A stretch of DNA of 64,000 bases from Candidatus Thorarchaeota archaeon. Lineage in GTDB: Archaea > Asgardarchaeota > Thorarchaeia > Thorarchaeales > Thorarchaeaceae. Positions 24,499-51,200 of this stretch are shown here, piece by piece. The position numbers and the translations under genes were made by a program. The notes beneath the pieces were generated by a model. The model was not told the DNA's origin. It did no database searches and worked only from the letters and a program-made list of their open reading frames with translations. How positions within the stretch are numbered: position 1 is the stretch's first letter; each line of letters opens with the position of its first letter. The DNA lies in assembly GCA_048882045.1 (NCBI GenBank), contig JBHLRZ010000018.1, positions 1,886-65,885 of the forward strand, given 5' to 3'.

Positions 24499-24504
24499 AT
24501 CATT

Positions 24505-24566
24505 GAAAAGAGAAAGGATGGAAGGAGGCGCGACCAACGCACCTTTGTGGGGTGTGTCACACCCAG
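24505..24566. repeat. Conserved intergenic motif, copy 1 (GAAAAGAGAAAGGATGGAAGGAGGCGCGACCAACGCACC…GGGTGTGTCACACCC)
   Basis: About 85% identical to 26306..26364. The core is shared with 27935..27968. Includes a hairpin (GGGTG-TGTCA-CACCC). Confidence 0.6.
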
Positions 24567-24610
24567 CCCGTTCGAAAGGCTTATACAGATGGCGGAGGAA
24601 ATTTCTTGCG

Positions 24611-29972: not shown

Positions 29973-32117
29973 CTATTTTCGCTTGATTACAAAGACAACA
30001 AACAGTACCGCAACCACAGCTCCAATCCCAATCAATCCAAGTGTAAGTACGTCAGGGCTCGTAAGCCCTCCGTCTGTTGATGTCGGAGACTCGGTTCCAG
30101 TCGGGATTGTGGTAGTACTTGTAGTTATTGTTTCTGTAGTTGTTTCAGTTGTGGTGAATCCTTCCACAGTGACTTCAACATGATCTGAAACAGTGTTTCC
30201 AGCACTATCAAGCAGAACGATTGTAAAGGTATATGTTCCAGAACTCAAGTCATCAAGTGAGTATTCAATCTGAGTCATTTCTAAACTCCAAATACCGACT
30301 TCTACAGAAATACCATCCTTCAAGATTTCATAGCTGAGTGGATTTAGGTCATAGACATTCCAGACAATGGAAAAACCAATTTCTCCCTCTTGGAAGACTA
30401 TATCCTCTGGGGAATCAACAGATGGAATAGTCGTGTCCACTACTGAGATAGTAAGGACATGTGAAACATAGTTATCAGAGGGATCATATGCTCTAACTTC
30501 GATGTGGTATACATCTAAACTCAATGGGATAGTATTCTCCATTAATCCGTCATTGATTATGAAATCGCTGCTGTTTACCCACCACCTATTGATGCCATAG
30601 TAATCCGTAGCAAACAGCTGATAGGATAATGAGGACCCACTCTCAATGATTTGGTCCTCTGGAGTTTCTACCCATTCTGGACTCGTGGTATCGTGGATAT
30701 TCACAATCACCTCATCAGTTGTTGAGATTCCACTGAGAGTTGAAACAGAAACAGAATATGTGTAGGTCCCAGGATCTAGATCAAAGAAGGGAGTTGAAAC
30801 ATTTCTTCCATCCCAAGTATCCTCTTGGAGGATGTCACTGTTCAAAGAAATAGAGAAGCAACATGGTCGGAATGCAGATGCTGACCAATCGATGACACCA
30901 CTTGCTGGTGCTTCGAGAATCAAGTCAACTGGTGAGCTTAGGTAGAGTATGTACCGAGGATCATTATCCGAACTACCTCGATCTCCAGAGATCTTGTATG
31001 TCGAGGTTCCAGTATAATCTGACCAAGCATTTGTATCCCAATTATTCACCAGACCTTTGATAGGTCCTCCAACGAAATCTATTGCATTTGATCCAGAACT
31101 GAATCCAATCTCGTTGTAATGTACTGATGCACCAGTAACTCCGATTAGGTATAAACCAACTCCCGAGTTCTTAAAGACAGTATTATTAAGAATCGAAATG
31201 TCCTGACTGTCCTTCAGATGGATTCCGTAATCAGAATTTAATCTGACATTGTTTGACTGGAGAGTCCCCGTATTAACCTCATAGAGTGATATTCCAGACT
31301 TGTTTTTGATTAGTTCAGAAGATGTGACATTGCAGTCTTGAGAATAGGCGATATAAACACCATATTGGGAGTATTGAACTAGGTTGCTTTCAGACGTGCA
31401 TCGCAGACCATTGTGGAAGTAGATACCGAATATTGCACTCATTACATCATTTGAATAGGTGATGGCTTCAACACTATTGATGATAAGAATGCCATAATCA
31501 CTGTCATCAATTACATTGTTTGCTATATCTGTATAATCTGTCTTTGAAAGATGGATTCCGTAGTCAGATTTCTTGATGTCATTACCTTTTACTGATATCC
31601 AAGTGGATTGTGTAATGTATATACCAGTTCCAAGCCTCGAGAACCTGTTGTTTTCGAATTTGCCTGTTTCCGATTTCTGAACAGAAATTCCAGCAGCGAG
31701 GAAATGGATGTAGGAATTATTTACTACCCCGTTAGTCACCTTTTCGAGGTAGATACCTGTACCAGTCTTATCATCCCAGGATGTCAGTTCACAGTTCTCA
31801 ATAACAAAGAAAACCGATGTGGAAACTATGCTGATGCAAGGATTATCAAACCAGCCATTATTGATTAGAAGATCCTTGATCAAGTAGGGAGATACCTTGG
31901 ACCCATTTCCCTCAAAACCAAGATCCTTGAAGTCATTATCACTGGATATTGAGATTGGAGCATGAGGTGTCAATGACGGGGAATACAACTTGTCGGATGG
32001 AGGACTGGATTCAAGAACCGTTGAGAAGGGGGCTAATGTTAGGGAGAGAGAAAAGAGAATAACAATACTGATACAAATAGCAAGAATTCTTCCTCTACAG
32101 GTCACTCTTTTCTGCAA
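29973..32117 (-). CDS. Secreted surface protein with right-handed parallel beta-helix (PbH1) repeats, Ig-like domains, Thr-rich linker and C-terminal TM anchor
   Basis: Repeats of the type NNVIDDSDYGILIINS and NNTVFKNSGVGLYLIG. A TTTETTTETITTSTTTIPTGTESPTSTDGG linker, then TM and KRK. Confidence 0.7.
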   Translation of the reverse strand: MQKRVTCRGRILAICISIVILFSLSLTLAPFSTVLESSPPSDKLYSPSLTPHAPISISSDNDFKDLGFEGNGSKVSPYLIKDLLINNGWFDNPCISIVSTSVFFVIENCELTSWDDKTGTGIYLEKVTNGVVNNSYIHFLAAGISVQKSETGKFENNRFSRLGTGIYITQSTWISVKGNDIKKSDYGIHLSKTDYTDIANNVIDDSDYGILIINSVEAITYSNDVMSAIFGIYFHNGLRCTSESNLVQYSQYGVYIAYSQDCNVTSSELIKNKSGISLYEVNTGTLQSNNVRLNSDYGIHLKDSQDISILNNTVFKNSGVGLYLIGVTGASVHYNEIGFSSGSNAIDFVGGPIKGLVNNWDTNAWSDYTGTSTYKISGDRGSSDNDPRYILYLSSPVDLILEAPASGVIDWSASAFRPCCFSISLNSDILQEDTWDGRNVSTPFFDLDPGTYTYSVSVSTLSGISTTDEVIVNIHDTTSPEWVETPEDQIIESGSSLSYQLFATDYYGINRWWVNSSDFIINDGLMENTIPLSLDVYHIEVRAYDPSDNYVSHVLTISVVDTTIPSVDSPEDIVFQEGEIGFSIVWNVYDLNPLSYEILKDGISVEVGIWSLEMTQIEYSLDDLSSGTYTFTIVLLDSAGNTVSDHVEVTVEGFTTTETTTETITTSTTTIPTGTESPTSTDGGLTSPDVLTLGLIGIGAVVAVLFVVFVIKRK

Positions 32118-34680: not shown

Positions 34681-35421
34681 TTAAATTCCTCTTACCTGTA
34701 ATCTCTTCCAATATAGGACTCCTATGATGGCTATTTCAATTGCAATCCCAAATATAATTAAAATTTCCAATGGAGCGATTGGTAAAACTCCATAGATTGG
34801 GTCATAGGAATCAAGATTGCATTCAACAAGTTCCCGTGTAGATGCTGAGGAAGACCCATCACCCCATTGAGAACATACACGTTTTATTAGAACACCATAG
34901 TGGATATCGTAGTAATAGAAATGATAGTGGGCGGAATCTGAGCTGTAGTCTTTTCGAGCAACCCAGCAGGTGAAATCACCTGCTTCTGTTTCAATGTTTC
35001 GGGATGCGGATATAATTTCACAGATGCCTTCACCTGGAATGGTTACATTTCCATTCCTAGACCAATGAGAAACATTCATCCAAAGTGGGTGTAGAGGTCC
35101 AAAATCAGCTCCCACAGAATCCACAGCATACCACTCAGGTAAAGTAACCTCAGCTTCTTCCGTACCGTCATCATCAGTTATCTGTAATGAAATGATTGAA
35201 TCTTTTGTAATCCAACCATTGACGAAATAATCGTATGCTCTGAGGTTTCCTGTACTAGCTCCAAATTGTTGATAGGCTTCATATTTCAAATTAAGTCCGA
35301 TTGGAAATTCAGGAGATTCGATAGCATGAGCCGTATGAAGTGGTACAAAACAAGTAAGAATCAAGACACCGAACAATAGTATACATGAGTGTCCCATCCT
35401 TCGAACCCCACTCATCCTCAT
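34681..35421 (-). CDS. Small secreted anchored protein, member of the EFPIG/DFPIG paralog family (C-terminal Glu-containing TM)
   Basis: Signal peptide, then AIESPEFPIGLNLKY. The LPEWYAVD block resembles 38318..39031. C-terminus: APLEILIIFGIAIEIAIIGVLYWKRLQVRGI. The ORF is open up to 35454 (GTG). Confidence 0.6.
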   Translation of the reverse strand: MRMSGVRRMGHSCILLFGVLILTCFVPLHTAHAIESPEFPIGLNLKYEAYQQFGASTGNLRAYDYFVNGWITKDSIISLQITDDDGTEEAEVTLPEWYAVDSVGADFGPLHPLWMNVSHWSRNGNVTIPGEGICEIISASRNIETEAGDFTCWVARKDYSSDSAHYHFYYYDIHYGVLIKRVCSQWGDGSSSASTRELVECNLDSYDPIYGVLPIAPLEILIIFGIAIEIAIIGVLYWKRLQVRGI

Positions 35422-35467
35422 GTGACATACTCTTGAGTGGAAATAAATCCTCACTTTTCTTCAAAGA

Positions 35468-35641
35468 GATGTTGCAGCATACACGCAACGAGGTTGGACA
35501 CGGAATGGTGTGCCCACTATGGGCAAGGTGAAGAAACTGGGTTTTGACGGGATCTCTGAGGTGATAGACATTATGAAGAAGCATGAAGGAACAGAACCTC
35601 CGAAGGAAACACTACCAGCCTTTGATGAAGCATGGAAATAG
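35468..35641 (+). pseudogene. Remnant of an AOR gene 3' end (last ~55 codons), about 82% nt identity to 34477..34641
   Basis: Translates in frame to …RGWTRNGVPTMGKVKKLGFDGISEVIDIMKKHEGTEPPKETLPAFDEAWK*, against …RGWTRNGVPTMDNVKKLGIDWIPEVIDIVKKYEGTEPPKETLPASDEAWK* for the intact gene. Confidence 0.8.
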
Positions 35642-35775
35642 AAGCAGATGTAAGAGGAGTATAATACCAACCCTCACCTTTCTAATCTTTATTAGATAGG
35701 AATGTCAGTGGATAGTGTAATTTTGTACTGAAAAATATCCTGGACTCCGATAAACAATCATAAGGATAGTCATGG

Positions 35776-36747
35776 ATGGCGGAATCCTTTTTGCTAACCA
35801 CGCACTCTTTTATGCGGGCATTCGCAATGCGGAGCATTATCAAAGGATTATCATTCTTTATACTCATTCTTCTACTACTAACTTCACCTACAGATATGCT
35901 GACTGAAAAAGCCAGAACTGTGAGATATATCACAGCAGGAGGGTCAGTATCAACTTCAGATCCTTACGGATTTATCAAAATAAGGGGTGGAGAATATATT
36001 GTTAAAAACGGTGTCTGGGGAGCAGAAACCTCACAGACAGTAACTGTACCAGACACCGATGTTTGCAAATTCAGTGTGACACATTCAGAACACTCTCAAG
36101 ACCATGTTGCTTCTTACGCATCTATCGGCAAAGGTTCTTGTTGGAGTCTGACAACTTCAGGTTGGAAATCAATACTCATCAATGATCTTGAATATGTGTC
36201 TTTCAATTGGAGTGTAAATAATTATCGTCCATCTGGAGTATATTGTATTATGGCTGAATCTTGGTTCAGCTCAAGGCTTGACACAAGCTCGGGTTACTCT
36301 GGCGGAGGGGAACTGCTGATTTGGCTTGATACACAAGGGATGGTTCCAGGGGGAAGTAAGGTCGGTGATTTCGGTTCTTATGAAGTCTGGTACGACTTAG
36401 TTGATCATAACTACATATGTTATCACATGACCGGACAAAACTCAGCTGAGATTAACCTCCTTGACTTCATCAATGATGCTGTAAGTAGGGGATATCTCAA
36501 CTCAACATGGTATTTACATGATATTGAAGCTGGATTTGAAATCTGTAGTGGGGGTGAGGGGCTCCTGCTTGAGTCATTCAATGTTTCAGTCAAAGAAAAT
36601 ACATCAGCTACATCTTCATCAGCTACATCAACTACATCTTCATCAACCACATCAGCGGAGTTTCCTGACATTTTACTAAATCTAGGAATCAGTGGACTGC
36701 TGGTTATAGTTATTATACTGATTGTACTAAAACTCAAGAAAAAGTGA
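35776..36747 (+). CDS. Glycoside hydrolase family 12-like endo-beta-1,4-glucanase with signal peptide, Ser/Thr-rich linker and C-terminal TM anchor
   Basis: GGGELLIWLDTQGMVPGGSKVGDFGSYEVWYD and IEAGFEICSG align to the GH12 catalytic blocks (YELMIWL…PIGS…TWELWYG … QFGTEPFTG). Linker TSATSSSATSTTSSSTTSAE, then TM and KLKKK. Confidence 0.7.
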   Translation: MAESFLLTTHSFMRAFAMRSIIKGLSFFILILLLLTSPTDMLTEKARTVRYITAGGSVSTSDPYGFIKIRGGEYIVKNGVWGAETSQTVTVPDTDVCKFSVTHSEHSQDHVASYASIGKGSCWSLTTSGWKSILINDLEYVSFNWSVNNYRPSGVYCIMAESWFSSRLDTSSGYSGGGELLIWLDTQGMVPGGSKVGDFGSYEVWYDLVDHNYICYHMTGQNSAEINLLDFINDAVSRGYLNSTWYLHDIEAGFEICSGGEGLLLESFNVSVKENTSATSSSATSTTSSSTTSAEFPDILLNLGISGLLVIVIILIVLKLKKK

Positions 36748-36774
36748 GATCAGGCAGCAATTGATGACATCAGA

Positions 36775-36816
36775 TGGGAAACACTACCCGCATCGGGTAG
36801 AGCATGGAATTAATGA
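36775..36816 (+). pseudogene. Second, shorter remnant of the AOR 3' end (…ETLPASGRAWN*)
   Basis: GGAAACACTACC is shared exactly with the AOR gene end. The in-frame translation ETLPASGRAWN* compares with ETLPASDEAWK*. Confidence 0.5.
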
Positions 36817-36860
36817 ATAACGATGAGGGTTATGGGATCATCAATCACCCTTTTCATTTC

Positions 36861-37670
36861 CTATCCTTTGTCTGTTGATTGTTTCCATACACAAAACAGC
36901 ACTATGATCATACACTCAATAACTATTCCAGCACTGAGAATGACATTAATGTCCATCGAAGGCGGCTCAGTTCTTGAAGTGGGACTAGTTGTATAGGTTG
37001 TTGAGGTAGTGGTGGTGGTTGGAATGGTAGTGGTTGTAGTTGTTTGAAGCAGCGGAGCATAGTTGTGAAGATTGGTATCCATGAGGAAAAGATCCGATTT
37101 TTCAAACGGAGAACTTCCGTCAGTGCTGTTCGTTTCTCTGTCGTAGTCTACTAATATTCCAAGAAATGAATGATACCCGAGCATTGTTTTGATAACAAGA
37201 TTGCCACTCTGCGTTTCGTTCCAAAGGAGGAACCACTCATAGGATCCCTCTGCTGTTGATGTGAGACCCGTATGATGAACTACGTAGTTAATTCCAGAGA
37301 ATTCGTACATATCGTCGATTTCCCAATATGCAACATTTCTCCATATTGGGGGATTCCCTGGAATATCGATATGAACATCGTGGAGAGGTTGAACTAAAGT
37401 CGTTGTATCGCCATCATGATTTCTCGAATATTCAACAACTCTGTTTAGTTCGTCAATCCAACTCGTGAAATCGTAAGTGATGTCATATTCATAATCTGGA
37501 TAGTCATAGGGATCATCGATGTACACAGCGATATTGTAATGCATATGCAAACCAATTGGAAAGTCATCACCTTGGGCATCTACAATTGGACAAGTAATAG
37601 AGCCTATTAGAAGTAGTGCGATGATTATTGACAGGAGTGTATCCCCCAGGCTTTTTGACATCCTGACCAC
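36861..37670 (-). CDS. Small secreted anchored protein, DFPIG paralog family
   Basis: Signal peptide, then AQGDDFPIGLHMHYNI…YEYDITYDF. Thr-rich linker. C-terminus: PSMDINVILSAGIVIECMIIVLFCVWKQSTDKG. Confidence 0.65.
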   Translation of the reverse strand: MVRMSKSLGDTLLSIIIALLLIGSITCPIVDAQGDDFPIGLHMHYNIAVYIDDPYDYPDYEYDITYDFTSWIDELNRVVEYSRNHDGDTTTLVQPLHDVHIDIPGNPPIWRNVAYWEIDDMYEFSGINYVVHHTGLTSTAEGSYEWFLLWNETQSGNLVIKTMLGYHSFLGILVDYDRETNSTDGSSPFEKSDLFLMDTNLHNYAPLLQTTTTTTIPTTTTTSTTYTTSPTSRTEPPSMDINVILSAGIVIECMIIVLFCVWKQSTDKG

Positions 37671-37837
37671 CCATTTTCTAATTGAATATCATCCTTAAGC
37701 GTGATATACCTTGTCAATTCGATTTCTCTTTCTATGGGAATAGGGATTTGTCTGGTATCACCCATTTCTACCTTTCAACTAGTTCGAATAAAGCAACTAT
37801 CAAAGGATTCTTTACGCTAAAACGCTAAAGATTTCAG

Positions 37838-38227
37838 TTGATTAAAATGAAAACAGTAGGTTATTTCGACGGTACAGATTCGATTCTTCTCACAAAATTA
37901 GCAGCACAGGGTTTCTGTACAGTCCCGCTTGGAAACGAAATGGATGGTTATGGGAAAATTGCATCTTTCATAGAACCTGGTGCAGTGGACATTATAATTG
38001 CCTACCTTCACAAATTACTACCGCCCCATAAGGACGACAAGAGGGTCATTCCAACCCCAGTGAATCTTCTTCATGCAGCCAATTCATATAACATACCAAT
38101 ATTCGTTATAGTCCCAAAGGAGCTACACAAGGAAGCTAAGAAGCAACTAGGAGAGGCTGCGGATTTTGTTAGAATGGTGACTCCTGAAGATCTTGAAGAA
38201 GAAGTCCGCAAGGAACTGAAAATCTAG
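37838..38227 (+). CDS. Small cytoplasmic protein of unknown function (129 aa)
   Basis: Non-hydrophobic ORF with alternating alpha/beta character, sitting between family members. No motif I recognise. Confidence 0.4.
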   Translation: MIKMKTVGYFDGTDSILLTKLAAQGFCTVPLGNEMDGYGKIASFIEPGAVDIIIAYLHKLLPPHKDDKRVIPTPVNLLHAANSYNIPIFVIVPKELHKEAKKQLGEAADFVRMVTPEDLEEEVRKELKI

Positions 38228-38317
38228 TATCCCTGCGTGAACAAGCTTTGGTTAAAAAGAAGCAGACCAAAAAAAGACCAACTTTGACCAATCTAATCGT
38301 AGGTCATGTCAACTCCT

Positions 38318-39031
38318 CTACTCTCTAAAACGGTATGCTATCAGGTAAACTATAACAACAATTTCGACGAGGAAACCAAATAGGTAAGACACTGGAATAT
38401 TAGAGTCATTAAGTCCTTGATCAGTAATAGTAAATTCAACTTCGCCAGGATAGTACATCAATTGGATTGTATACACTGTGCTGTTAGGGTATCTAGTATG
38501 ATAGTCATATTGTCTGATGCGGTTTGTTTGAGAATCATAGAAAAGATTCTCGGAGATGATAAATCCTACATCAGGAGTCGTCCTGTTTATCGCCACCATG
38601 TCAAATGAAACATAATTAACTGAGAAGTTGAACAACCAAGAATCAGGATCCGTGAAGACCATACCTGATTCGAATGCTGATACATCTAGCCATATAGGAC
38701 AGTATGGCCACCTTTCTACGATGTTCCCCTCAGTGTCAACTACAGCCCACTCTGGAATCCTAAGACGATACTCTTGAATTGCAGAGTTGTTGGTCACTTT
38801 GATTACTGCAATCCCGTCAGTGGGGGACCAGACATCAACTTCAAACTTCACGTAAGTAGCCCAATCTCCACTACTGTGGTAGTATTCATAGTAGGCAGTC
38901 TTCCCGGGATAAAGAGTACCCGATACTGGTTGAATCAGTGTTATTGTAAGAGTCAGACATAGTAGCGTTATTGGAATGATCAGATTTCTGGGAAATTGCC
39001 TGGGTCTTCTAAATGTCGTACAATACCTCAA
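38318..39031 (-). CDS. Small secreted anchored protein, distant member of the family (no Thr linker)
   Basis: A TTG start at 39031 gives the signal peptide MRYCTTFRRPRQFPRNLIIPITLLCLTLTITLIQPVSG. The IPEWAVVD block matches 34681's LPEWYAVD. C-terminus: FGFLVEIVVIVYLIAYRFRE. The ORF is open to 39193 but would then overlap the upstream gene by 136 nt. Confidence 0.5.
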   Translation of the reverse strand: MRYCTTFRRPRQFPRNLIIPITLLCLTLTITLIQPVSGTLYPGKTAYYEYYHSSGDWATYVKFEVDVWSPTDGIAVIKVTNNSAIQEYRLRIPEWAVVDTEGNIVERWPYCPIWLDVSAFESGMVFTDPDSWLFNFSVNYVSFDMVAINRTTPDVGFIISENLFYDSQTNRIRQYDYHTRYPNSTVYTIQLMYYPGEVEFTITDQGLNDSNIPVSYLFGFLVEIVVIVYLIAYRFRE

Positions 39032-39057
39032 GACTGACTCCTCAAATTCATCTTCTA

Positions 39058-39900
39058 TCACACTTCCTTCTTCTTTCGAGTATATAGTATCCATACAATG
39101 ACTAGCTCCACGACTATTGATGCGAGAATGACTACATCGAGAGTAGGTAATGTGAATTGCTGAGAAGTGGTGGTGGTGGTTCTCGGAGGCCAAATGGAAG
39201 ATGTTTGAGTAGTCGTAGTAGTTGAAGTAGGAGTGGGAGTCGGAGGTATGAATTCTTCGATATTTCCAGACACAAGTTCAAAGATGCCTTGGCCATAGAG
39301 TTGGTTTTCCAAAGGGAGACTTGCATTAATGTATTCGATTATGCCTATTATCGCCATTCCCGAAAACGAGTCATAGTAGACATAAGTCAAGTTACGCAGA
39401 TCACCGAATCCCCAAAAATACTCCAGTTCGTAACAATCATACCCTGAATCATAATCAAGGTGTATATAGTCGATGACCCAATGGTTTCTACTTCCTATGA
39501 CATAGGGTTCTCCCAGAGTGACCTGAGACACATCAATCCAAAGTGGCCACAGGAACAACCCTGGTAGCTCTAGAAAACTATTAGGAAATTCTGCAACATA
39601 TGTGTGGTTATACTCACTGAGTATGGATGTGCTAGGTTGATAGGTCACATTACTGAAACAATTGAATTTGATTTCTACCAAATCTGCATCGTAATCTATC
39701 CACCTTGTGAAGTTGTATCTATATGTGAGAGTTTCAGAAAAATTGCCTATGTAACTCTCGTATTCCCAATAGTAGTCAAGAAATAGACCCACTGGTAACT
39801 GATTGGTTTGAGCAAAGGTGTTAGTAGTGAAATTGGCTGAAAGAAGTCCAAGAATAATTGTCAGCACAACAATACTGTGTTTCCTATACTTTCGCCACAT
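39058..39900 (-). CDS. Small secreted anchored protein, paralog family
   Basis: Signal peptide, then AQTNQLPVGLFLDYYWEY…YRYNFTRWIDYD. Linker PTPTPTSTTTTTQTSS…TTTTTSQQ. C-terminus: PTLDVVILASIVVELVIVWILYTRKKKEV. Confidence 0.65.
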   Translation of the reverse strand: MWRKYRKHSIVVLTIILGLLSANFTTNTFAQTNQLPVGLFLDYYWEYESYIGNFSETLTYRYNFTRWIDYDADLVEIKFNCFSNVTYQPSTSILSEYNHTYVAEFPNSFLELPGLFLWPLWIDVSQVTLGEPYVIGSRNHWVIDYIHLDYDSGYDCYELEYFWGFGDLRNLTYVYYDSFSGMAIIGIIEYINASLPLENQLYGQGIFELVSGNIEEFIPPTPTPTSTTTTTQTSSIWPPRTTTTTSQQFTLPTLDVVILASIVVELVIVWILYTRKKKEV

Positions 39901-39938
39901 CTTACCTCACTATTTTCACTTCAAATCTTGATAGCAAG

Positions 39939-40748
39939 CTACTCCTTTCGTTTCAAAAACGTCAATATGATGACAAGTTCTACAAATATTGCCGCTACAA
40001 AAACTATGTCTAAAGTAGGAATTTGATATGATTCCGTTGTTGGTGTCGTAGTAGGAGGTGTGGTAGGAGGTGTGGTCTGTCCTGGGGATGTAGTAGACGT
40101 TGGTGATGTGGGATCAGTGGTTGGGATTGTAGTTGTTTGAGTTGTTGGAATGACGAAATCAGGAGGATTGAAAACATTGAAGTTTCCTGAAAGAACGAAT
40201 GAGCTGTATATTCTCGACCAGTTTCCAGATACGCTTGTTTCCCAATGTGTATAATCAAGTAACAATCCTAATTGTGTGTGATAATACAGGTCTGTTGCAT
40301 TCTCCCATCCATCTTGTTCAAGGATGTACTCAAGTCGGAAACATTCAACGTCGCCAAATGTACCCATGAAATGGTCCACAATTTGGATGATTTGATATTG
40401 AATTCCTGAAATCTGAATAACATGATATAGGTCCCACGTTGAAACATCCATCCAAAGATATGGTTGCTCAGCTAAAGGAAGACGAACCTCGAGGAAAGAC
40501 TGGTTATAATTCACGGAGTCTCTTTCATATTCTAGCTGCAGAGTGCTCAGGTTGGTCCATCGAATGAAATCGTATGTAATCTCGTATTCTGGAATCTCAG
40601 GAGTGTATTGAAAGAATACATTTGTGATGTAAAGAAGATTCATCCCGATAGGAAAGTCATCACGTTGAGCATCGGTGGGCATAACCCACACACTAAGAAG
40701 AAGGATTCCAAATACAAAAGCCACAACAGCAGTCTCTCCCTTCCTCAA
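39939..40748 (-). CDS. Small secreted anchored protein, DFPIG paralog family
   Basis: AQRDDFPIGMNLLYI…YEITYDFIRW. Pro/Thr-rich linker. C-terminus: PTLDIVFVAAIFVELVIILTFLKRKE. Confidence 0.65.
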   Translation of the reverse strand: MRKGETAVVAFVFGILLLSVWVMPTDAQRDDFPIGMNLLYITNVFFQYTPEIPEYEITYDFIRWTNLSTLQLEYERDSVNYNQSFLEVRLPLAEQPYLWMDVSTWDLYHVIQISGIQYQIIQIVDHFMGTFGDVECFRLEYILEQDGWENATDLYYHTQLGLLLDYTHWETSVSGNWSRIYSSFVLSGNFNVFNPPDFVIPTTQTTTIPTTDPTSPTSTTSPGQTTPPTTPPTTTPTTESYQIPTLDIVFVAAIFVELVIILTFLKRKE

Positions 40749-40865: not shown

Positions 40866-42128
40866 ATGACAATGGAAGGGGAAGTAAAAACAAAGAAGAA
40901 TTCGAAAAAAGAAGTGGGCCTTTGGGTCTATCTCGTCTTTTTCGTGGGTTTATTTTTGATATGTATAGCTTTTTCTCTGGCAGGTGTTTCGACCATTCAA
41001 GAAATCTCACTTACGCATATTTCGTCATCTATATTCTTCTCCCTGTTGGGTGTAATCTTCCTGATGTGCTGGATGTTAGTCCCGCCAGAATCTGAAGAGT
41101 CAAAACAGAGAAGGAAAGAGGAACGAGAGCAGCGTAGACAAGCTGAAATCGCGAGATTCAGGAAAGCGGAAGAGGCACGACGTGAGGCTTTGGATCGCAG
41201 GAGAAGGAGACTCGTCGATGAGACAGTTGTCAGAAGAGGTTATCCATCGACGGCAAAGAAACCGATACCGGGTATAACTCATGCCCTATCAGATGTCAGG
41301 AGAGTTCCACCTACCAAGACTACTGAGGGAGTCGAGGTTAGAAGAGGTGGTGAATTCATTGGGAACCGAATGAGGTTCAAGGTCAAGGTTCTCAACGACT
41401 CCTCTTACATTATAACTGATGTCACAGTGTATCTCTTGTCGTATCCAAAGGATGCCCTGAGGTTCGCAGGAGAAGATCATGACATTTTCTTCGCCAAGAT
41501 AGAACCTGGGGGTTTCAGAAGCCCTACATTTGACTTTCTCCCGACCCAAGATTGCGTAAAGGGAGAGATTGTTGCAGGTGTTTCATACATGGATATGCGT
41601 GGTCAACCTCATACTCTCACAGCAAAGCCGTTTGTTATCCGCTCTGTATGCGATCTATTGTTGCCTCAACAAGTGACACCAGAAGACTTCAAGTTGAAAC
41701 TCAAAGATCTTGAATGCGGAGAGATTGCCATCAAAATAGAAGAGTGGACACCAAAGGAGATGTTCGAGAAATCATTGAGAATTGTTGATGAGTCAAACTT
41801 CTTCGAAGTAAGTAGTCACTCAGAAGAAACAGATGGTGTATTCTTTGGGAAGATTGTTGGCTTTGCGAAAGGGAAATACACAGGAAAGGATGTGGGAGTG
41901 GAGATCACGGTAACCGGACCAGTCGGAGTCAAAGGATCTTCTTGCACAATCCAAGTGTCTGGAGAAGACCAAGCGATGATTTTGCCTGCAATCGATGACC
42001 TACGTGAACGTCTGAGTGCATGGCTATGTCCGATGTGCTCAAGTCCCTTGCCCATAGCGAATGTTGAAGACTTGCGTAAAGGCAACGTCGTGAAATGCCA
42101 ATTCTGTGGAGTTTCGATTGGTCGATAG
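40866..42128 (+). CDS. Membrane-anchored protein (2 N-terminal TM, basic coiled-coil-like segment, conserved ~280-aa domain, C-terminal CPxC…CxFCG zinc ribbon); paralog 1 of 3
   Basis: Conserved blocks: RRGGEFIGNRMRFKVKVLNDSSY, IEPGGFRSPTFDFLPTQDCVKGEIVAGVSY, FVIRSVCDLLLP, GKYTGK, IQVSGEDQAMILPAIDDLRERLSAWLCPMCSS…KCQFCGVSIGR. Confidence 0.7.
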   Translation: MTMEGEVKTKKNSKKEVGLWVYLVFFVGLFLICIAFSLAGVSTIQEISLTHISSSIFFSLLGVIFLMCWMLVPPESEESKQRRKEEREQRRQAEIARFRKAEEARREALDRRRRRLVDETVVRRGYPSTAKKPIPGITHALSDVRRVPPTKTTEGVEVRRGGEFIGNRMRFKVKVLNDSSYIITDVTVYLLSYPKDALRFAGEDHDIFFAKIEPGGFRSPTFDFLPTQDCVKGEIVAGVSYMDMRGQPHTLTAKPFVIRSVCDLLLPQQVTPEDFKLKLKDLECGEIAIKIEEWTPKEMFEKSLRIVDESNFFEVSSHSEETDGVFFGKIVGFAKGKYTGKDVGVEITVTGPVGVKGSSCTIQVSGEDQAMILPAIDDLRERLSAWLCPMCSSPLPIANVEDLRKGNVVKCQFCGVSIGR

Positions 42129-42144
42129 GATTCTGTTGAAACGG

Positions 42145-43341
42145 ATGATTATCATGTCACAACAAACTCGGAAACAAGAATCGCAAGCGGAATTTGAATC
42201 CGAGTTTGAAAAAGATAAACCTGTAAATGTTGTAGTACTCGGAGTATGTTTCATTATAATTGTAGTAACAACTATGGTTGTGTTGGTTACGGTCTACTCT
42301 GTACCTTTTACGTTTGAGCAATATATGGTGGTTGTGGCAATTGTTGTTTGCTTTACTTTGGTTTGCTATTGTGCGAAATATTATCCCTTAGATGATAAAA
42401 TATCAGATGGGGAAAGCATGGAGCAACACTACCTGAAAGCAAGAGATACCGCACGGACATATGTTAGACCAAAGAAACCAATCCCGGGAGTAATCAAAAG
42501 TATTGCACCAGTCAAACCTCCACCTACAAAGAGAGAGAACTTGGTCAAAGTTCTCAGAGGTGGTGAGTTCATAGGAAACCGTATGAGGTTCAAAGTGAAG
42601 GTCATCAACGATTCTTCATTCATCCTCTCTGATGTCACAGTATATTTGTTGTCCTACCCAAATGATGCACTCCGTTTCGCAGGGGAAGAAAATCATGTCT
42701 TCTTCTCAAAGATTGAACCAGGAGGTTTTAGAAGCCCAACATTCGACTTCCTACCTACTCAAGATTGTGTCAGAGGAGATATTGTTGCAGGCGTTTCGTA
42801 CATTGACGAGAGGGGAAATCCAAAAGCTCTAACAACCCGTCCGTTTGTGATTCGTTCTGTTTGCGACCTTCTTTTGCCTGAGCAAGTGACACCAGTGGAT
42901 TTCGAGCTCAGATTGAAGGATTTGGAATGTGGTGAAATCACTGTAAAGATTGAAGAATGGACTCCCCAAGAGATGTTTGACAAAGTACTTCGTATCTTGG
43001 ATGAGTCAAATTTCTATGAAGTGAAGAGTGAACTGAAAACAATCGATGAAGTTGTATTTGCTGAGATATCTGGATATGCAAAGGGAAAATACACGGGCAA
43101 GAATATTGCAGTCGAGATTAGTGTGACAGGGCCTGAACGAGTCAACGGTGCTACTTGCAAGATTCAGGTTTCTGGGGAGGACCAAGCAATGATTCTCCCA
43201 GCTATTGATGACCTACGTGAGAGACTGAATGCATGGCTTTGTCCTCAATGCAACAGCTCATTGACACTGGAAAATGTCGTGAATCTTAGGAGAGGAGAAG
43301 TGGTACAATGTCCCTTCTGTGGCATCTCTATAGGACGCTGA
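42145..43341 (+). CDS. Paralog 2 of the membrane-anchored Zn-ribbon protein family
   Basis: About 75% identical to paralog 1 across the conserved domain. Ends CPQCNSS…QCPFCGISIGR. N-terminal anchor is divergent. The frame is open from a GTG at 42106 that overlaps paralog 1. Confidence 0.7.
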   Translation: MIIMSQQTRKQESQAEFESEFEKDKPVNVVVLGVCFIIIVVTTMVVLVTVYSVPFTFEQYMVVVAIVVCFTLVCYCAKYYPLDDKISDGESMEQHYLKARDTARTYVRPKKPIPGVIKSIAPVKPPPTKRENLVKVLRGGEFIGNRMRFKVKVINDSSFILSDVTVYLLSYPNDALRFAGEENHVFFSKIEPGGFRSPTFDFLPTQDCVRGDIVAGVSYIDERGNPKALTTRPFVIRSVCDLLLPEQVTPVDFELRLKDLECGEITVKIEEWTPQEMFDKVLRILDESNFYEVKSELKTIDEVVFAEISGYAKGKYTGKNIAVEISVTGPERVNGATCKIQVSGEDQAMILPAIDDLRERLNAWLCPQCNSSLTLENVVNLRRGEVVQCPFCGISIGR

Positions 43342-43383: not shown

Positions 43384-44295
43384 ATGCAAGTACTTGACCC
43401 ATACGTCTTTGGATTGCTCAGCGCGGTAGCAGCAACGATTTTCTTTGGAGTGACGAATATCATCTACCTGAAATTGAGTGAAGACATCAATGTGATGGAC
43501 ATCATGTTCACGCGTATTTGGGTTAGTCTTCCTCTTGCATTTACATTTGCAGTCGGGTCGATTGGTAGTCTCAATATAGTGATCCCTGCAAGCGCAATGC
43601 TGCCTCTTTCAGTGTCGATGATTATAGGAATTGTGATTGGAGATGCGATGTACTTCTTGAGTCAGGAGAGAATCGGAGTTTCTAGAGCATTTCCAATCGC
43701 AATGAGCTATCCTCTTCTTGTCTATTTACTCACCGCACTATTTCTTGGAGAACCTGTTATTGTTCAGAGAATAGTTGGAGCAGTGGCTACCGTCATCGGG
43801 GTTTCTGTAATAGCCAGAGCTGAACATATAGATAGTTCGAACACAGATGGTCGTTGGTCCGATCGAGAAAGAAGGATTGGTTTCATTCTGGCAATATTCA
43901 CAGCCCTTGCATGGGCACTAAGTGATGCCATATTCCAGTTTGGACTTATTTCCGTTGGTGCGGCTGAAAGTAATTATTTCCGTTTGTTAGTTGTTTCAAT
44001 CATATTAATTCCAGTCTTCATCATCTCTTTAAGAGGAGGAAGAAAACTCCCAACAAGAAGTATCACAGGAAAGGCTCTACTTACAGGTCTCTTTGGTGTG
44101 GGTTTTAGCTTGATTGCTTATAGCTACGCTGTAAAATTCATAGGAGCCACTGTGACTTCTGTCATCGTAGCTGCGGCACCTGTGTTCACTGCACCCCTAT
44201 CAGTGCTCTACCTTGGAGAGGACGTCAATTGGAAGGTGGCAATCGGGACTCTTCTTACAATAATAGGAGTAGTTCTTGTAGTATTCATATTTTGA
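43384..44295 (+). CDS. DMT-superfamily (EamA-like) transporter
   Basis: 303 aa, 10 TM, two EamA-like halves. Inserted between paralogs 2 and 3. Confidence 0.65.
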   Translation: MQVLDPYVFGLLSAVAATIFFGVTNIIYLKLSEDINVMDIMFTRIWVSLPLAFTFAVGSIGSLNIVIPASAMLPLSVSMIIGIVIGDAMYFLSQERIGVSRAFPIAMSYPLLVYLLTALFLGEPVIVQRIVGAVATVIGVSVIARAEHIDSSNTDGRWSDRERRIGFILAIFTALAWALSDAIFQFGLISVGAAESNYFRLLVVSIILIPVFIISLRGGRKLPTRSITGKALLTGLFGVGFSLIAYSYAVKFIGATVTSVIVAAAPVFTAPLSVLYLGEDVNWKVAIGTLLTIIGVVLVVFIF

Positions 44296-44355: not shown

Positions 44356-45468
44356 ATGCAAGTAGAAGGAGCTTTGTTATCCATTGCGGCGTTCATTATC
44401 ATCTTCGCCGTCATTGTATTTGCGCTATACATCTGTGGGTCATCAGATGATGATATAATGCTCACCAGTCAAGAGAGAGGATATATACCACAGAGTGTTC
44501 GACATGAGTTTCCAATTCTAGGTCAACGATCTGAAGATTATGGAGGACGAGCAAGAGAACAGATCTTGAGGGATTACTTACCAACGAAACGCCCAATCGC
44601 AGGTGTATCAAGAGCTGTCACTGTTTTGAAGAGACCTCCTGCAATGGATGACATAAAAGCTAAGAAGACCGTTGAAGTCAGAAGAGGTGGGGAGTTCATA
44701 GGGAACCGGATGCGTTTCAAAGTAAAAGTGTTGAATAACACAGAGTACACTATTACTGATGTCACAGTGTTCCTTATCTCATATCCAACTGAAACATTAA
44801 GGATTGATGCAAGTGAGCATTCCACTCGTTTTCCCAAGATCGAGCCTGAGGGATTCAGAAGTCCGACATTCGATTTCCTACCGACCCAGGACTGTGTGAA
44901 GGGAGAGATTGTCGCTGGTGTATCATACATCGACTACAGGGGGACTCCTCATTCACTCAATACCAAACCTTTCACTATACGTTCAGTCTGTGATTTATTG
45001 ATGCCCGATAAAATCACAGCTGAAGACTTTGAGCTCAAATTGAAGGATCTAGAATGTGGGGAATTGATCGTAAAGGTAATTGATTGGACTCCTTCCGAGA
45101 TGTTTGACAAGTCACTGAGAATTCTAACAGATGCCAATTTCTATGAAGTCAGCAGTGAGATGACTGAGAATGATGGCATCACATACGCTACAATAACTGG
45201 ATTCGCAAAGGGGAAGTATACAGGAAAACAGGTAGCAGCCAAGATTGCTATCACTGGTCCAGCTGGAAAACCTGGGGCATCTTGTACCATACAAGTATCA
45301 GGCGAAGATCAAGCAATGATACTGCCTGCCATTGATGATCTGAGAGAACGACTCAGTGCGTGGATGTGTCCCAATTGCTCTAGTCCGATTTCTATAGAGA
45401 ATGTAGAGAAACTCAGAGAGGGTAAAATTGTGACATGTCTCTTCTGTGACGCTTCAATTGGAAGATAG
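44356..45468 (+). CDS. Paralog 3 of the membrane-anchored Zn-ribbon protein family (single N-terminal TM)
   Basis: Same conserved domain (RRGGEFIGNRMRFKVKVLNNTEY … CPNCSSPISIENVEKLREGKIVTCLFCDASIGR). Confidence 0.7.
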   Translation: MQVEGALLSIAAFIIIFAVIVFALYICGSSDDDIMLTSQERGYIPQSVRHEFPILGQRSEDYGGRAREQILRDYLPTKRPIAGVSRAVTVLKRPPAMDDIKAKKTVEVRRGGEFIGNRMRFKVKVLNNTEYTITDVTVFLISYPTETLRIDASEHSTRFPKIEPEGFRSPTFDFLPTQDCVKGEIVAGVSYIDYRGTPHSLNTKPFTIRSVCDLLMPDKITAEDFELKLKDLECGELIVKVIDWTPSEMFDKSLRILTDANFYEVSSEMTENDGITYATITGFAKGKYTGKQVAAKIAITGPAGKPGASCTIQVSGEDQAMILPAIDDLRERLSAWMCPNCSSPISIENVEKLREGKIVTCLFCDASIGR

Positions 45469-46700: not shown

Positions 46701-47432
46701 TTACAAAAGATGTGCAGTTCCACAGTGAGCACACACAACAGCATCATCAAACTCTCCCGGTAGCGGAAGAGGTGCACCGCAATTCTGACATTTGAGGTCT
46801 CGAATCTCTGATCGTTTCTCCTTTGGAATATTGAGTTTGAATACTCGGTCTGCTACATCTTGAATCGACTTACCAATCTTCTGTGCAGCTCTTGCTATCG
46901 AACTTCGTTCAGGATCAGTAAGAGAACCCAACCCAACAGCTTGGAAGAAACTGTCGATTACTTTACCAATCTTTCCAAAAATGGAGCCAGCTTTCCATGC
47001 CATGACATCAGATACGTGGAGTTCAAGAAGTTCTGAATCTGGATGACCAGGTATCTCGTATCCTCTCTTCCAGTCAACACGGCCCTCTCGTTTCGATGAA
47101 AGTGTATGACCACACTTAGGACAGAACATCTGCCATTCCTTGCCGAAGAATCCCTTCCGCTTCTTACGTTCTCCAACATTATACCAGCATCTCTTGTGAG
47201 CTATGCTCTCGCAGTTAGGGCATGAAAAGAGATGATATTGGTCCGGTTTAGCCTTCTCACCACGACCTGAGAATACCTTAAGATATGTCAAGTCATCATT
47301 TGTATAGTTGAGAAGATACCTGCCACAGATAAAGCATGTTCTACCATCAAGTTTGTTCAATTTCTCTGGAGTCAGTCGCAATCCTCTATACCTCATACTC
47401 ACAGTGAACATTAAGCAATAAGAATCTTGCAT
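46701..47432 (-). CDS. Multi-zinc-finger protein: N-terminal C4HC3 (PHD/RING-variant-like) spacing plus C-terminal CxxC…CxxC zinc ribbon
   Basis: CFIC…(34)…CPNC-x4-H-x2-C…(21)…CPKC, and at the C-terminus CQNCGAPL…CAHCGT. Confidence 0.55.
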   Translation of the reverse strand: MQDSYCLMFTVSMRYRGLRLTPEKLNKLDGRTCFICGRYLLNYTNDDLTYLKVFSGRGEKAKPDQYHLFSCPNCESIAHKRCWYNVGERKKRKGFFGKEWQMFCPKCGHTLSSKREGRVDWKRGYEIPGHPDSELLELHVSDVMAWKAGSIFGKIGKVIDSFFQAVGLGSLTDPERSSIARAAQKIGKSIQDVADRVFKLNIPKEKRSEIRDLKCQNCGAPLPLPGEFDDAVVCAHCGTAHLL

Positions 47433-48242: not shown

Positions 48243-51200
48243 CTACCTTCTTCTATAGAGGACACAAACAATGACCACTAGAGCAACAACACCACCAACA
48301 ATCAAGTAGAGAGTCATTGGATTGCCATCACCAGAGTAGGGAGTAGTTGGTGTAGTTCCAGGAGGTCCTTGTGCACTTGTGTATGCTACAAAGATTGGGT
48401 CACAGATGATATCATGACCTCCCCAGTTTTTGTAACCAGCTGTCATGAATAGCATGGATGCTTCAACATTCCAATTGGTCACAGAACTTCCTGAAGCAGA
48501 TTCATACATCAGACTGAAGGCTCCTATCGGAGCTGTGGAAGATCCTGAAGTATGGGAACTGCCATCATAGCCCCAAATATATGGGAGTCCGCCCATTTCT
48601 ACACTTGCATAGGGATTGTTTTCAGCTCCGAACTCATAGTAGTCTGCATTTTGGCTTGCACCATTGTTATCAGTAACAGGTTGATCACCAGCAGTATATC
48701 GTGTGACCGTTCCTGTGGCAAGAACTCCAAAGAAGTTCACAGCCAGACTTCGTCCGTCTAACACAGAATTATCAAAGTCATAGAGAGTCCAGTCACCAAT
48801 TGTCTGGTCAATCTTGAACGACACAGCATGATTCCAAGTCAATGGATCCGCAGCATCATAGTTGACCATATCAACATTGAAGCTGATATCAAATGCCATC
48901 TCGTCGACTATAGCGCTTGTGACCCAGTAGTCGAAGTTGGTTGCATTTAGACCAACGGCGCCCTCATAGGACTGTCTGAAATCCCAAGCACCTCTCAATG
49001 CTGATGAGTGTTCTACTTTCAATGGATAAATGGTCACATTCACATCAGTGATGGTAACCCCAAAGGTAACCTCAGTATCAGGACTGACTTGCACGTTGCC
49101 CGAGTTATTTGTAGCGCCAAATGGTCTACGGAGCGAGACTGCTCCGACCTCATCAACCAAGACGAGGTGTGTGACTTCGTCAGTCACCACCTGCCCTCCT
49201 TCAATTGAGAAATCTGGAGCACTCTCGGACGGGCCGAGACCATCATTGAAGATGAGTAATCCAGCGTATTGCGATCTGAAGTGTGCCAGTGTTGCTTGAT
49301 CTTCAGCGATACCTACCCAGAAGTTCTGAGTAGTTCCCCAAGCAAACCATGTAGTAGTCCACTTACCTTGTTCTAGACCGGGAATAGCTGTTATATCAAG
49401 TGTCCAGTTCCTGGAAAGCCAAGAAACGTACTCATAACCCGGTGTTGGTAGATTGTTATCAAAGTCAGCCCACATCAGATTTTGAATGTCAGCCATCTCA
49501 CTTGCACTAATTGATGATCCATCAGAGGCGTGATACCAGTAGAAGGTTTCGTTGGCGTTAAACCAGATATTCTGTTCTACAACACCCATCCAGTTCTGAG
49601 ACCAGAATTCATCTCCAGGTGCACCAGGTGAAGGATCAAAGCCAACACCTACCAACATTCCTTCAACTGTCACATTGCCCCAGTCTTCCCAATAACCAGT
49701 CCTTTTGATATAGTATTGGTCATCTACTGTGAAGATATTTCCATCGAGGTCGATAGCACCGTTCTCCGTCACAATCCAAATAGGAGGTGTGTAGGAGGGC
49801 ACTTCACCAAGACGGAGGTGTCGTGGACTCCAGAGAATGTCATCTGAAACATCGATAACATTGTAGTAATCTGTCCAAGTGGCAATTAGAGCATTATACT
49901 GTTCAACTGTAAGTTCAGTACCATTCAGATGGTCTGGGAAGGCCCAATCTGTTCCATTCCACCATCGAACATTCTGAATCAGACCTACTTTAATTGAGGC
50001 TTTATCAATGACCATATCAGGTGCTTCAGCATCAAAGCTGAACTCGACAATGACAGTCGAAAGGTCATCACCAAGTTTGATTACGAAGCCAGATACTGTC
50101 AAATGATTTGCAGGAATTGAGATAGGTCCCCATAGTTTACCAAGTTCTCTTGAATACATTGTTATTTTGTACTGACTAGATGTTGAATGAGTGCCTAATT
50201 CATAATCGAGAATCGCCGTATGTGTGATATCAACTCTCCAATAATGAGTGGCATTACCATCCATTATTGAACCATGAACTTCGATGGTCACATCCTTTAG
50301 TTCTGAAGTGATGTTAAAGAAAGCGCTTGGCTCAGGTTCAATTACCAAAGAACCATCTATCAAATTGACATCTCTGTGAACCAATATTGTTAGATTCAAT
50401 GGATCGCCCTGTAGAGCATTATTAGCAATCTGACCTATATCATCGAAAACAAACGCTTCTATGAAAGTTGTACGAAATGAAAACTTCAATGTCTGACGGT
50501 CAGAGATCTCAGGTCGAGCAATAATGGGATTACCGCTGGTATCAAGAACAGTGACGAGATCCATTATGGGTTGCACAGTCCCACCATATTCCAATCCTGG
50601 ATCGAGATCCGTTTCATTTGTGAAATATCCAGCCCACTGAACTCTATGACCTGCATCAAAGACTCCTGTGAGAACAGGATCCTCAACATAGTATGTGCTT
50701 AGGTCAATTGTTGAGTTTTCGATAATTGAGAATACGGGGAACCACATCATGATTCCGCCACCAAGATCGATTGGGTCCCAAGTTAGGTTGAGGTATCCAG
50801 CTACTGGAAATGCACCAGTAGAATTTAGAATGAATACCATTGTTGGTAGTAGTTCGAAAGTCCTATTGGAGAACTTGAGATCTCTATCAAATAAAGCAGA
50901 AGGTCCCTCAGAATCCAATCTGTCGGGATAGGACCAAGTCACATTGATTTTGTATTGCGCATCAAAGGTAAGTTGTTCAACTAATGGAATTAGACAACTT
51001 CCAATCTCAGCTGACGACCGCATTCTAAGTATGAAGGTGTCATTGACATCTGCATAGTGCAGAATTCTTCCAGTTTCATCAACGATGTCTGCATAGTAGT
51101 AATCAGGTAGGGAAAAATCTAGTGGATTAACTGCCATTCCAAGTCCAATTGGAGGAGTTCCATATCTTCCAGCTACTGAAGCTGTCAACCATGAGGACGA

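Follow-up and report, generated by a model that had tools for sequence, protein, structure and literature searches.

Why do five small secreted proteins of a Thorarchaeota genome all carry a glutamate in the middle of the single hydrophobic helix that anchors them in the membrane? The question is raised by a 64-kb stretch of a Candidatus Thorarchaeota contig (the window; all coordinates below are window positions), which was scanned for the five genes, labelled A to E. A first-pass annotation of this DNA had described them as a tandem family whose charged C-terminal transmembrane (TM) anchor served either helix-helix association or as a processing or sorting signal. We found an Asgard-specific, so far undescribed family of type I (bitopic) cell-surface proteins, and with moderate confidence we favour the first of the two options. 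The conserved anchor face centred on the Glu would be an interface for lateral helix-helix association, rather than a sorting tag.

All five open reading frames (ORFs) were confirmed on the minus strand, and in a full-length alignment they are paralogues of 14-29% identity:

39939..40748, minus strand: paralogue E, 269 aa from a TTG start (database model P0001 begins 8 codons later); signal peptide, FPIG ectodomain at residues 28-198, Thr/Pro stalk 199-245, TM 248-265, tail KRKE
39954..40007, minus strand: anchor helix of E, IVFVAAIFVELVIILTFL, with the Glu257 codon GAA at 39978-39980
39058..39900, minus strand: paralogue D, 280 aa (database model P0011); LPVG replaces FPIG; Thr/Pro stalk 215-253; TM 256-273 (39082-39135); Glu265 codon GAG at 39106-39108
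38318..39061, minus strand: paralogue C, 247 aa from a GTG start; PEWxxVD subtype without Thr-rich stalk; TM 224-241 (38339-38392); Glu233 codon GAA at 38363-38365
36861..37670, minus strand: paralogue B, 269 aa; FPIG; Thr-rich stalk 206-240; TM 243-260 (36891-36944); Glu252 codon GAG at 36915-36917
34681..35421, minus strand: paralogue A, 246 aa from ATG at 35421, the most likely start, which matches the 246-aa database representative P0014 (the ORF reaches 35454); FPIG and PEWYAVD, no stalk; TM 220-237 (34711-34764); Glu229 codon GAA at 34735-34737

The mid-helix Glu was kept in 5/5 paralogues after correction of the gene starts, always as residue 10 of a hydrophobic span of 18 residues that is followed by K/R and a total of 4-10 mostly basic residues. 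The main correction concerned C, for which a start at 39193 had been assumed. This 291-aa ORF overlapping D was replaced by the GTG at 39061, which shares its TG with the TGA stop of D (GTGA) and yields the 247-aa NCBI model P0007 ('MAG: hypothetical protein ACFFF9_10285 [Candidatus Thorarchaeota archaeon]', MAG standing for metagenome-assembled genome). E, D and C follow each other head to tail with a 38-nt gap between E and D and a 4-nt overlap between D and C. They probably form one operon, within which the GTGA overlap of D stop and C start at 39058-39061 suggests translational coupling. B and A are set apart from E-D-C by plus-strand genes for a 129-aa protein and a GH12 enzyme.

In A-E the N-terminal n-region is basic, the h-region is hydrophobic and an AxA-like site follows; signal peptides were assigned from this n-h-c pattern, the AxA-like sites and the N-terminal helix of the AlphaFold2 model. 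The motif [DE][DE]FPIG, which opens the ~165-residue ectodomain, begins within 4-6 residues after the AxA-like site. Several of the shared sequence features annotated before apply to part of the family only. FPIG is present in A, B and E and becomes LPVG in D and YP-G in C; PEWxxVD is found in A and C and is absent from B, D and E. The Thr/Pro-rich linker (35-47 residues) is restricted to B, D and E and missing in A and C, and the same distribution was observed for the P-[TS]-[LM]-D-[IV] prefix of the anchor, which family-wide amounts to a weak helix N-cap preference (Leu -11; Thr/Asp/Asn -10). The TM Glu is invariant in alignments of 5 and of 10 sequences, as are two Trp, one Val, one Tyr and, within the FPIG motif, the P and the G.

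The Glu is a property of this family and not of membrane anchors in general. In the window it was found in 5/5 family anchors, compared to 0/7 other C-terminal anchors consisting of a hydrophobic helix and a basic tail. These seven ORFs, which include two giant immunoglobulin (Ig)-domain proteins, a subtilase, a NosD-like beta-helix protein and the GH12 enzyme, have no acidic residue of any kind in the helix core (0/7). When the window was pooled with related Thorarchaeota loci (~150 kb, family members identified by the family hidden Markov model), Glu was present in 9/9 distinct family members and in 0/9 other anchored ORFs (Fisher p ~2e-5), so that a compositional origin, which the first-pass annotation had named as the alternative, does not hold. 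The Glu anchor is real and statistically solid. A database-wide search for the anchor only, employing a short, padded 40-column profile, gave 548 word candidates, none of them scoring E<=10, and carries no weight for or against the specificity of the Glu.

The window also encodes five large secreted proteins (526-4032, 4029-7568, 48243-51806, 29973-32117 and 9861-11162, all on the minus strand), comprising Big_7 Ig-domain giants, a 1187-aa protein without Pfam match, a NosD-like beta-helix protein and a subtilase, most of them Thr-stalked. Four of the five carry plain C-terminal anchors, and 526-4032 was not flagged as anchored. Since these large proteins carry plain anchors, the stalk-plus-anchor design is general in this genome and the Glu is not.

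How far does the family extend, and how constant is the Glu in it? Word-indexed searches returned a handful of homologues, all Glu-bearing, and the Glu is invariant in the five paralogues and all close homologues. An exhaustive HMMER search with a 10-sequence profile against 1.84 billion cluster representatives identified 83 representatives at E<=1e-3, 40 of them at <=1e-10. The source names of the matches were only 'hypothetical protein' from Candidatus Thorarchaeota or Promethearchaeota (Asgard) MAGs, the rest being unnamed. For the five proteins no match was found in Pfam or NCBIfam, and no Pfam match to the ectodomain was obtained for any of 73 members. A PDB search with the family profile gave matches to the ectodomain region at E 0.003 or worse (e.g. 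complement receptor type 1), none of them significant. A C-terminal TM was detected in 77 full-length sequences, most of them representatives of clusters at 50% identity; 46 of the 77 had a mid-helix Glu, 1 an Asp and 30 no acidic residue. In a neighbour-joining tree calculated from ectodomain columns nearly all Glu-anchored sequences fell into one part, here called the Glu clade, and sequences with plain anchors or RING-tailed cytoplasmic parts into another, the sister clade. Parsimony on this tree counted six state changes for the Glu anchor, two of them scoring artefacts, which leaves ~4 real ones. Because the tree groups the Glu-anchored sequences and requires few state changes, the Glu anchor is an old, clade-defining trait that was kept while the ectodomains drifted. 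Tandem copies all bearing the same anchor face were found again in other genomes.

The conservation around the Glu was analyzed by aligning 51 anchors on this residue (position 0):

-11: Leu
-7: Leu in 34/51
-4: Gly in 37/51; Gly, Ala or Ser in 48/51
-3: Ile in 44/51
-1: Ile/Val
0: Glu
+3: Ile/Val
+4: Ile in 39/51
+7: Leu
+10/+11: Arg/Lys, with K/R at +11 in 44/51

K/R occur at +9 to +12 after the 18-residue hydrophobic span, followed by 0-10 further residues to the C-terminus. The i, i+3/4, i+7 spacing of the conserved positions describes one face of an alpha-helix. The Fourier power of the conservation profile from -11 to +8 peaked at exactly 100 degrees per residue, with a permutation p of 0.002, or 0.01 with the Glu column neutralised, values which are optimistic as the sequences are related by descent. 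The conservation moment calculated without the Glu pointed 1.8 degrees from it. With conservation of alpha-helical periodicity and a conserved face centred ~2 degrees from the Glu, the helix-helix association option gains support. Pairwise identity within the Glu clade was 34% for the anchor (30% without the Glu) versus 23% for the ectodomain; in the sister clade the plain anchors shared 15% pairwise identity, with equally diverged ectodomains (26%).

These values also bear on the alternative that the Glu has no specific role and is an inherited, tolerated feature of a fast-evolving surface family, its helix being no more than an anchor. The loss of the Glu in several members nested in the Glu clade and the functioning of the sister clade with plain anchors would agree with it. 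However, an energetically costly residue was retained in 46 sequences, mostly cluster representatives, whose ectodomains have diverged to 23% identity. Both Glu codons are in use (GAA in three paralogues, A, C and E, and GAG in the other two), the flanking face is conserved with helical periodicity, and conservation is higher in the anchor than in the ectodomain. We regard mere tolerance as quite unlikely.

What would such a face be good for? A Glu halfway along a single-pass helix that is otherwise aliphatic comes at an energetic cost, except where it packs against a second helix, is protonated and takes part in a hydrogen bond, or forms an ion pair. Tightly packed helices typically have a small residue four positions before a polar one. 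The anchors show the features of the class of TM helices that associate via polar residues, namely a central ionisable residue, one conserved face including the Glu and a small residue one turn away. For bitopic proteins it is established that helix association can be driven by polar or ionisable TM residues, for example in the KDD/DxxxT assembly of immune receptors (PMC13107469). Helix association fits best because the Glu is invariant and central on a conserved face, a small residue precedes it by one turn, the face is common to the paralogues and the tail is short.

We infer secretion, glycosylation of the stalk and membrane association via the Glu face, in the following way. A Sec-type signal peptide would export the ~165-aa domain, predicted to form a 10-strand antiparallel beta sheet, with the mature N-terminus starting at [DE][DE]FPIG. 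In some members the Thr/Pro-rich stalk, probably O-glycosylated, would keep this domain off the membrane. The 18-residue TM helix would be retained as anchor, with the 4-10 mostly basic residues beyond it in the cytoplasm. Its packing face would consist of L(-11) L(-7) G(-4) I(-3) E(0) I/V(+3) I(+4) L(+7), and the Glu, buried at the centre, would probably be protonated or ion-paired. Association mediated by this face could lead to homo- or hetero-oligomers of the paralogues or involve a putative common membrane partner. As the same face is kept across the paralogues, a common partner or hetero-oligomers would be slightly favoured over private homo-oligomers. With so short a cytoplasmic tail, which could do nothing by itself, any coupling to the cell interior would have to pass via the interface.

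We are aware of several observations that weigh against an association interface. The Glu was lost in several lineages nested in the Glu clade (P0039, P0046, P0051 and P0079), and is for this reason not indispensable for the fold. The common descent of the sequences behind the periodicity test was mentioned above. No neighbouring gene was found to encode a conserved basic TM residue; the N-terminal TM helices of the three adjacent TM-plus-zinc-ribbon proteins (NB1-3, see below) are poorly conserved and uncharged. Finally, there is the sodium channel subunit Nav beta3, which like the family studied here is a type I protein with a beta-rich ectodomain and a conserved TM Glu. In this auxiliary protein Glu-176 tunes the interaction with the membrane partner (PMC6926464). 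It was dispensable for self-oligomerisation and for binding and modulated function (PMC6926464). Nav beta3 differs in being a eukaryotic Ig-domain protein with a longer tail and has no homology to the family.

The second option of the first-pass annotation was a signal for a processing or sorting enzyme. In this case an archaeosortase-like transpeptidase, a rhomboid, a CPBP protease or another enzyme would recognise the Glu helix and remove the anchor or exchange it, e.g. for a lipid. The general arrangement is indeed that of PGF-CTERM and PEP-CTERM proteins, in which secreted surface proteins carry a C-terminal hydrophobic helix and a basic cluster after a Thr/Pro-rich region (PMC6098224), and an acidic mid-helix residue together with the Gly at -4 could destabilise the helix for intramembrane cleavage. 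Known sorting motifs, however, are signature tripeptides at the outer boundary of the helix, whereas the Glu is located 9-10 residues deep, with conservation along a whole helix face. No such edge motif and no NCBIfam CTERM match, even at E<=1, were detected for the anchors, which confirms the earlier statement that they are not of the PGF-CTERM type. Real sorting signals serve many unrelated cargoes with a cognate sortase, but the Glu motif is bound to one ectodomain family and absent from 9/9 other anchors.

The search for a suitable enzyme covered a Pfam scan of the 46 window ORFs and the called genes of five related Thorarchaeota loci. Neither in the window nor in the related loci was a sortase, archaeosortase or rhomboid gene found; a check for a co-occurring sortase-like or rhomboid-like gene had been suggested before. 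The only intramembrane-protease-like gene of the window is 26 kb away: an Rce1-like CPBP intramembrane protease domain is contained in a 168-aa ORF (7713-8219, minus strand), and a 123-aa ORF is located just upstream (8280-8651, minus strand), so that the two may represent a split or frameshifted gene. This CPBP gene (7713-8651) speaks for enzymatic processing. The fact that archaeosortases are known from a subset of Euryarchaeota (2018 review, PMC6098224) counts against it. Overall we consider a processing or sorting signal unlikely.

A comparable layout is known from archaeal surface proteins. Sulfolobus SlaB, the haloarchaeal S-layer glycoprotein and CbsA likewise combine a signal peptide, a beta-rich ectodomain, an O-glycosylated Ser/Thr stalk and a TM anchor (PMC6098224). 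They differ by the lack of a conserved mid-helix acid and by unrelated ectodomains, and the Asgard proteins are much smaller (~250 aa). A weak C-terminal similarity to CbsA (NCBIfam) reflects the composition of stalk and anchor only.

Helix association could also take the form of a homo-oligomeric bundle in which a ring of Glu residues binds or conducts cations or protons. The bundle would then act as a small channel or sense pH or ions, comparable to those of phospholamban or viroporins. Leu/Ile-zipper TM bundles have a heptad-like a/d pattern of Leu/Ile, and the Leu/Ile pattern around the central polar residue of the anchors resembles it. Furthermore, TM trimers and tetramers of DAP12 coordinate K+ or Ca2+ by acidic residues (PMC13107469). 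Nevertheless, the helix has one polar position only and is otherwise aliphatic, which leaves no polar pathway, and a large variable ectodomain on a stalk would be unexpected for a simple channel. Ion binding or conduction by such a bundle is in our view very unlikely.

What does the anchor hold on the outside of the cell? The structure of the ectodomain was predicted, as recommended earlier. In a full-length AlphaFold2 model of mediocre quality, based on 10 sequences (predicted local distance difference test, pLDDT, of 71), the core was all-beta, with a helix at either end of the protein and a disordered stalk before the C-terminal one. Restricting the prediction to the ectodomain and using a 73-sequence alignment gave a confident all-beta model (pLDDT 94.2, predicted template modelling score 0.88), in which ten long strands form an antiparallel meander. 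Foldseek comparison of this model with the PDB gave nothing below E 1e-3, and no match was found in a viral structure library. The top Foldseek matches, all non-significant, were LolA, the LolA-superfamily protein NE2245, the ependymin-like EPD-BCP1, LmcA, Ycf58 and nitrobindin (E 0.002-0.02, template modelling scores 0.17-0.40, root-mean-square deviation >7.5 A). These matches, of the LolA/LolB-like and lipocalin/FABP-like open beta-barrel kind, are all curved antiparallel meander sheets holding hydrophobic ligands; the same fold is not demonstrable, as there was neither a significant superposition (E<1e-3 and a template modelling score of about 0.5 or more) nor a sequence signal. The modelled ectodomain would thus be a curved sheet of antiparallel strands that faintly resembles carriers of lipids or other hydrophobic ligands.

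The two clades differ on the cytoplasmic side. The tails measure 4-21 aa in the Glu clade, and those of the window's five proteins, all ending 4-10 residues past the helix, are without RING finger. Sister-clade members possess long tails with RING-like or zinc-ribbon domains. In ~9 non-acidic members, all from the database and outside the window (P0041, P0044, P0048, P0058, P0060, P0064, P0066, P0068 and P0075), the tails of 83-290 residues end in a C-x2-C ... C-x2-C ... H-x2-H ... C-x2-C finger. Pfam zf-RING_2 was matched by 8/73 family members (best E 1e-6), and the family profile matched the TM and RING part of human ZNRF3 in the PDB search (E=5.5e-4). One sister-clade member also carries HEAT repeats. 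Judged by their sequences, these Asgard relatives resemble transmembrane RING proteins of the receptor type. With ectodomain, TM helix and cytoplasmic RING-H2-like finger they share the architecture of E3 ligases of the PA-TM-RING/ZNRF3-RNF43 type, a likeness limited to the sister clade; the PA domain of the latter is unrelated to the family ectodomain, and an E3 activity of the sister clade is putative. The direct connection of the sister-clade ectodomain to a RING-like effector suggests that the ectodomain is a sensing or binding module.

The RING-tailed relatives allow for another explanation of the Glu, by analogy to the quality control of the T-cell receptor (TCR) alpha chain: the residue might mark an unassembled chain for retention or degradation and perhaps be read by membrane RING proteins. 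TM charges of immune receptors double as assembly and degradation signals (PMC13107469), ubiquitin systems are encoded in Asgard genomes (PMC9192718), and RING-tailed members of the same family exist. Yet RING-tailed and Glu-anchored members were neither co-occurring nor adjacent in the loci examined, and the argument is purely analogical. Of all the explanations considered, such a mark appears the most improbable.

Does the neighbourhood offer a partner for the proposed interface? Three related genes are found next to the family genes:

40866..42128, plus strand: NB1, divergent from E; N-terminal TM helices, ~290-aa cytoplasmic domain and C-terminal CxxC...CxxC zinc ribbon
42106..43341, plus strand: NB2, a paralogue of NB1
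44356..45468, plus strand: NB3, 66% identical to NB1, located beyond an EamA transporter gene (43384-44295)

Wherever the flank of a locus is long enough, a gene for an NB1-type protein of 370-420 aa is directly adjacent to the family gene that comes first, usually in divergent and once in convergent orientation, and three to five NB1-type paralogues were counted per locus. No relative of NB1 was found in Pfam, NCBIfam or the PDB. The NB1-type proteins are highly conserved in Thorarchaeota: NB1 is 72% identical to its orthologue in one related locus (L006), compared to 27% for the family proteins between the same genomes. A functional link to the family is possible; the adjacency may also be simply inherited synteny. 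Nothing marks the NB1-type protein as partner of the Glu, because its poorly conserved TM helices are without basic residue. In the TM helices of other window proteins basic residues were restricted to scattered multi-pass candidates far away. When the cytoplasmic part of the RING-tailed relatives was compared to the TM-zinc-ribbon neighbours in a Rosetta-stone test, no similarity was detected.

Parallels to an association interface of this kind come from immune receptors (TCR-CD3, KIR/NKG2C-DAP12, NKG2D-DAP10). They too are single-pass proteins with an extracellular binding domain, a very short tail and a mid-membrane ionisable residue, and many diverged ligand-binding chains rely on one TM determinant that governs lateral assembly (PMC13107469). 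There, however, the basic residue belongs to the ligand-binding chain and the acidic one to the signalling dimer, whereas the binding-type chain of the Asgard family is acidic and conserves a whole helix face, not the charge alone; a sequence relationship to the archaeal family does not exist. The sister clade, with its ectodomain joined to a RING-like finger, raises a more far-reaching model, which we put forward tentatively and hold to be rather unlikely. The Glu-anchored proteins would be the ligand-binding subunits of split, modular Asgard surface receptors, in which many fast-evolving ectodomains, five of them in this locus, would plug into a common signalling or effector chain by way of one conserved charged TM face. 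Effector candidates would be the adjacent TM-plus-zinc-ribbon proteins or a TM protein with a buried basic residue, and the sister clade with its RING finger would represent the single-chain version.

The gene embedded in the cluster had led to the interpretation of a surface layer specialised for polysaccharide interaction. Two plus-strand genes interrupt the family genes:

35776..36747, plus strand: GH12 endoglucanase-like protein with Ser/Thr stalk and plain C-terminal anchor without Glu; not a family member
37838..38227, plus strand: 129-aa cytoplasmic protein between B and the C-D-E operon

By sequence comparison the GH12 gene is genuine, with 43.3 bits for Pfam PF01670 (cut-off 27) over positions 2-206/207 and with similarity to the PDB cellulases 3wx5, 1h0b and 2bw8 (E 1e-38 to 1e-40; 9e-41 for 3wx5). 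Its stalked architecture was correctly recognised, while its plain anchor sets it apart from the family. In the orthologous loci GH12 is missing and other genes occupy its place. The plain anchor and the missing synteny leave the polysaccharide-specialised surface layer unsupported, and the polysaccharide-utilisation reading was rejected for lack of synteny.

The related loci share a backbone of PRC-barrel ... EamA ... [family gene(s)] ... 126-aa gene ... DUF1847/AOR ... NosD-like ... PEPCK, into which 1-2 tandem family genes are inserted elsewhere and five here. Scans for further loci gave one more genome among the GTDB species representatives and four more loci from metagenomes. The genes between family members vary, GH12 being found here only and a leucine-rich repeat protein or a 243-aa gene elsewhere. 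A gene of 126-129 aa occupies the syntenic position of 37838..38227 in the related loci, as judged by position and length only. The gene content of the window is a mixture typical of Asgard archaea: besides AOR and PEPCK there are transporters (MFS, EamA), large surface proteins of the Ig and beta-helix types, a small GTPase related to Arf/Ras and a HerA-like ATPase. Arf/Ras/Roc-like small GTPases are eukaryote-signature proteins typical of Asgard archaea; the one found here (61296-61859, plus strand) lies beside the HerA-like (DUF87) ATPase gene (59312-61234, plus strand). At 46701-47432 (minus strand) a 243-aa cytoplasmic protein with several CxxC pairs is encoded, showing sub-threshold C-terminal matches to Prok-RING_1 and double zinc ribbons; in related loci a gene of 219-236 aa beside the PRC-barrel gene takes the counterpart position (by position and length only). 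No Pfam match at all was obtained for three further proteins, 560-650 aa long and encoded at 22819-24498, 24503-26299 and 57379-59340 (all plus strand), the second one with a plain C-terminal anchor.

What does the finding mean for these organisms? Asgard archaea are the closest prokaryotic relatives of eukaryotes, and to our knowledge almost nothing is known about their cell surface. Here, an Asgard-restricted family of small surface proteins is defined, with at least 83 sequence clusters and no relative in Pfam, NCBIfam or the PDB, whose most conserved element is the Glu-centred face of the membrane helix and not the exposed domain. If the Glu were only a tolerated quirk, the result would be a new family annotation and no more. 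If the face is an assembly interface, it would provide a simple handle for finding membrane complexes on Asgard cells. The RING-wired relatives hint at receptor-like transmembrane RING proteins predating eukaryotes. Split receptors, if they exist, would show in archaea the principle by which eukaryotic receptors assemble, the pairing of charges within the membrane, here tied to a RING/ubiquitin-type output.

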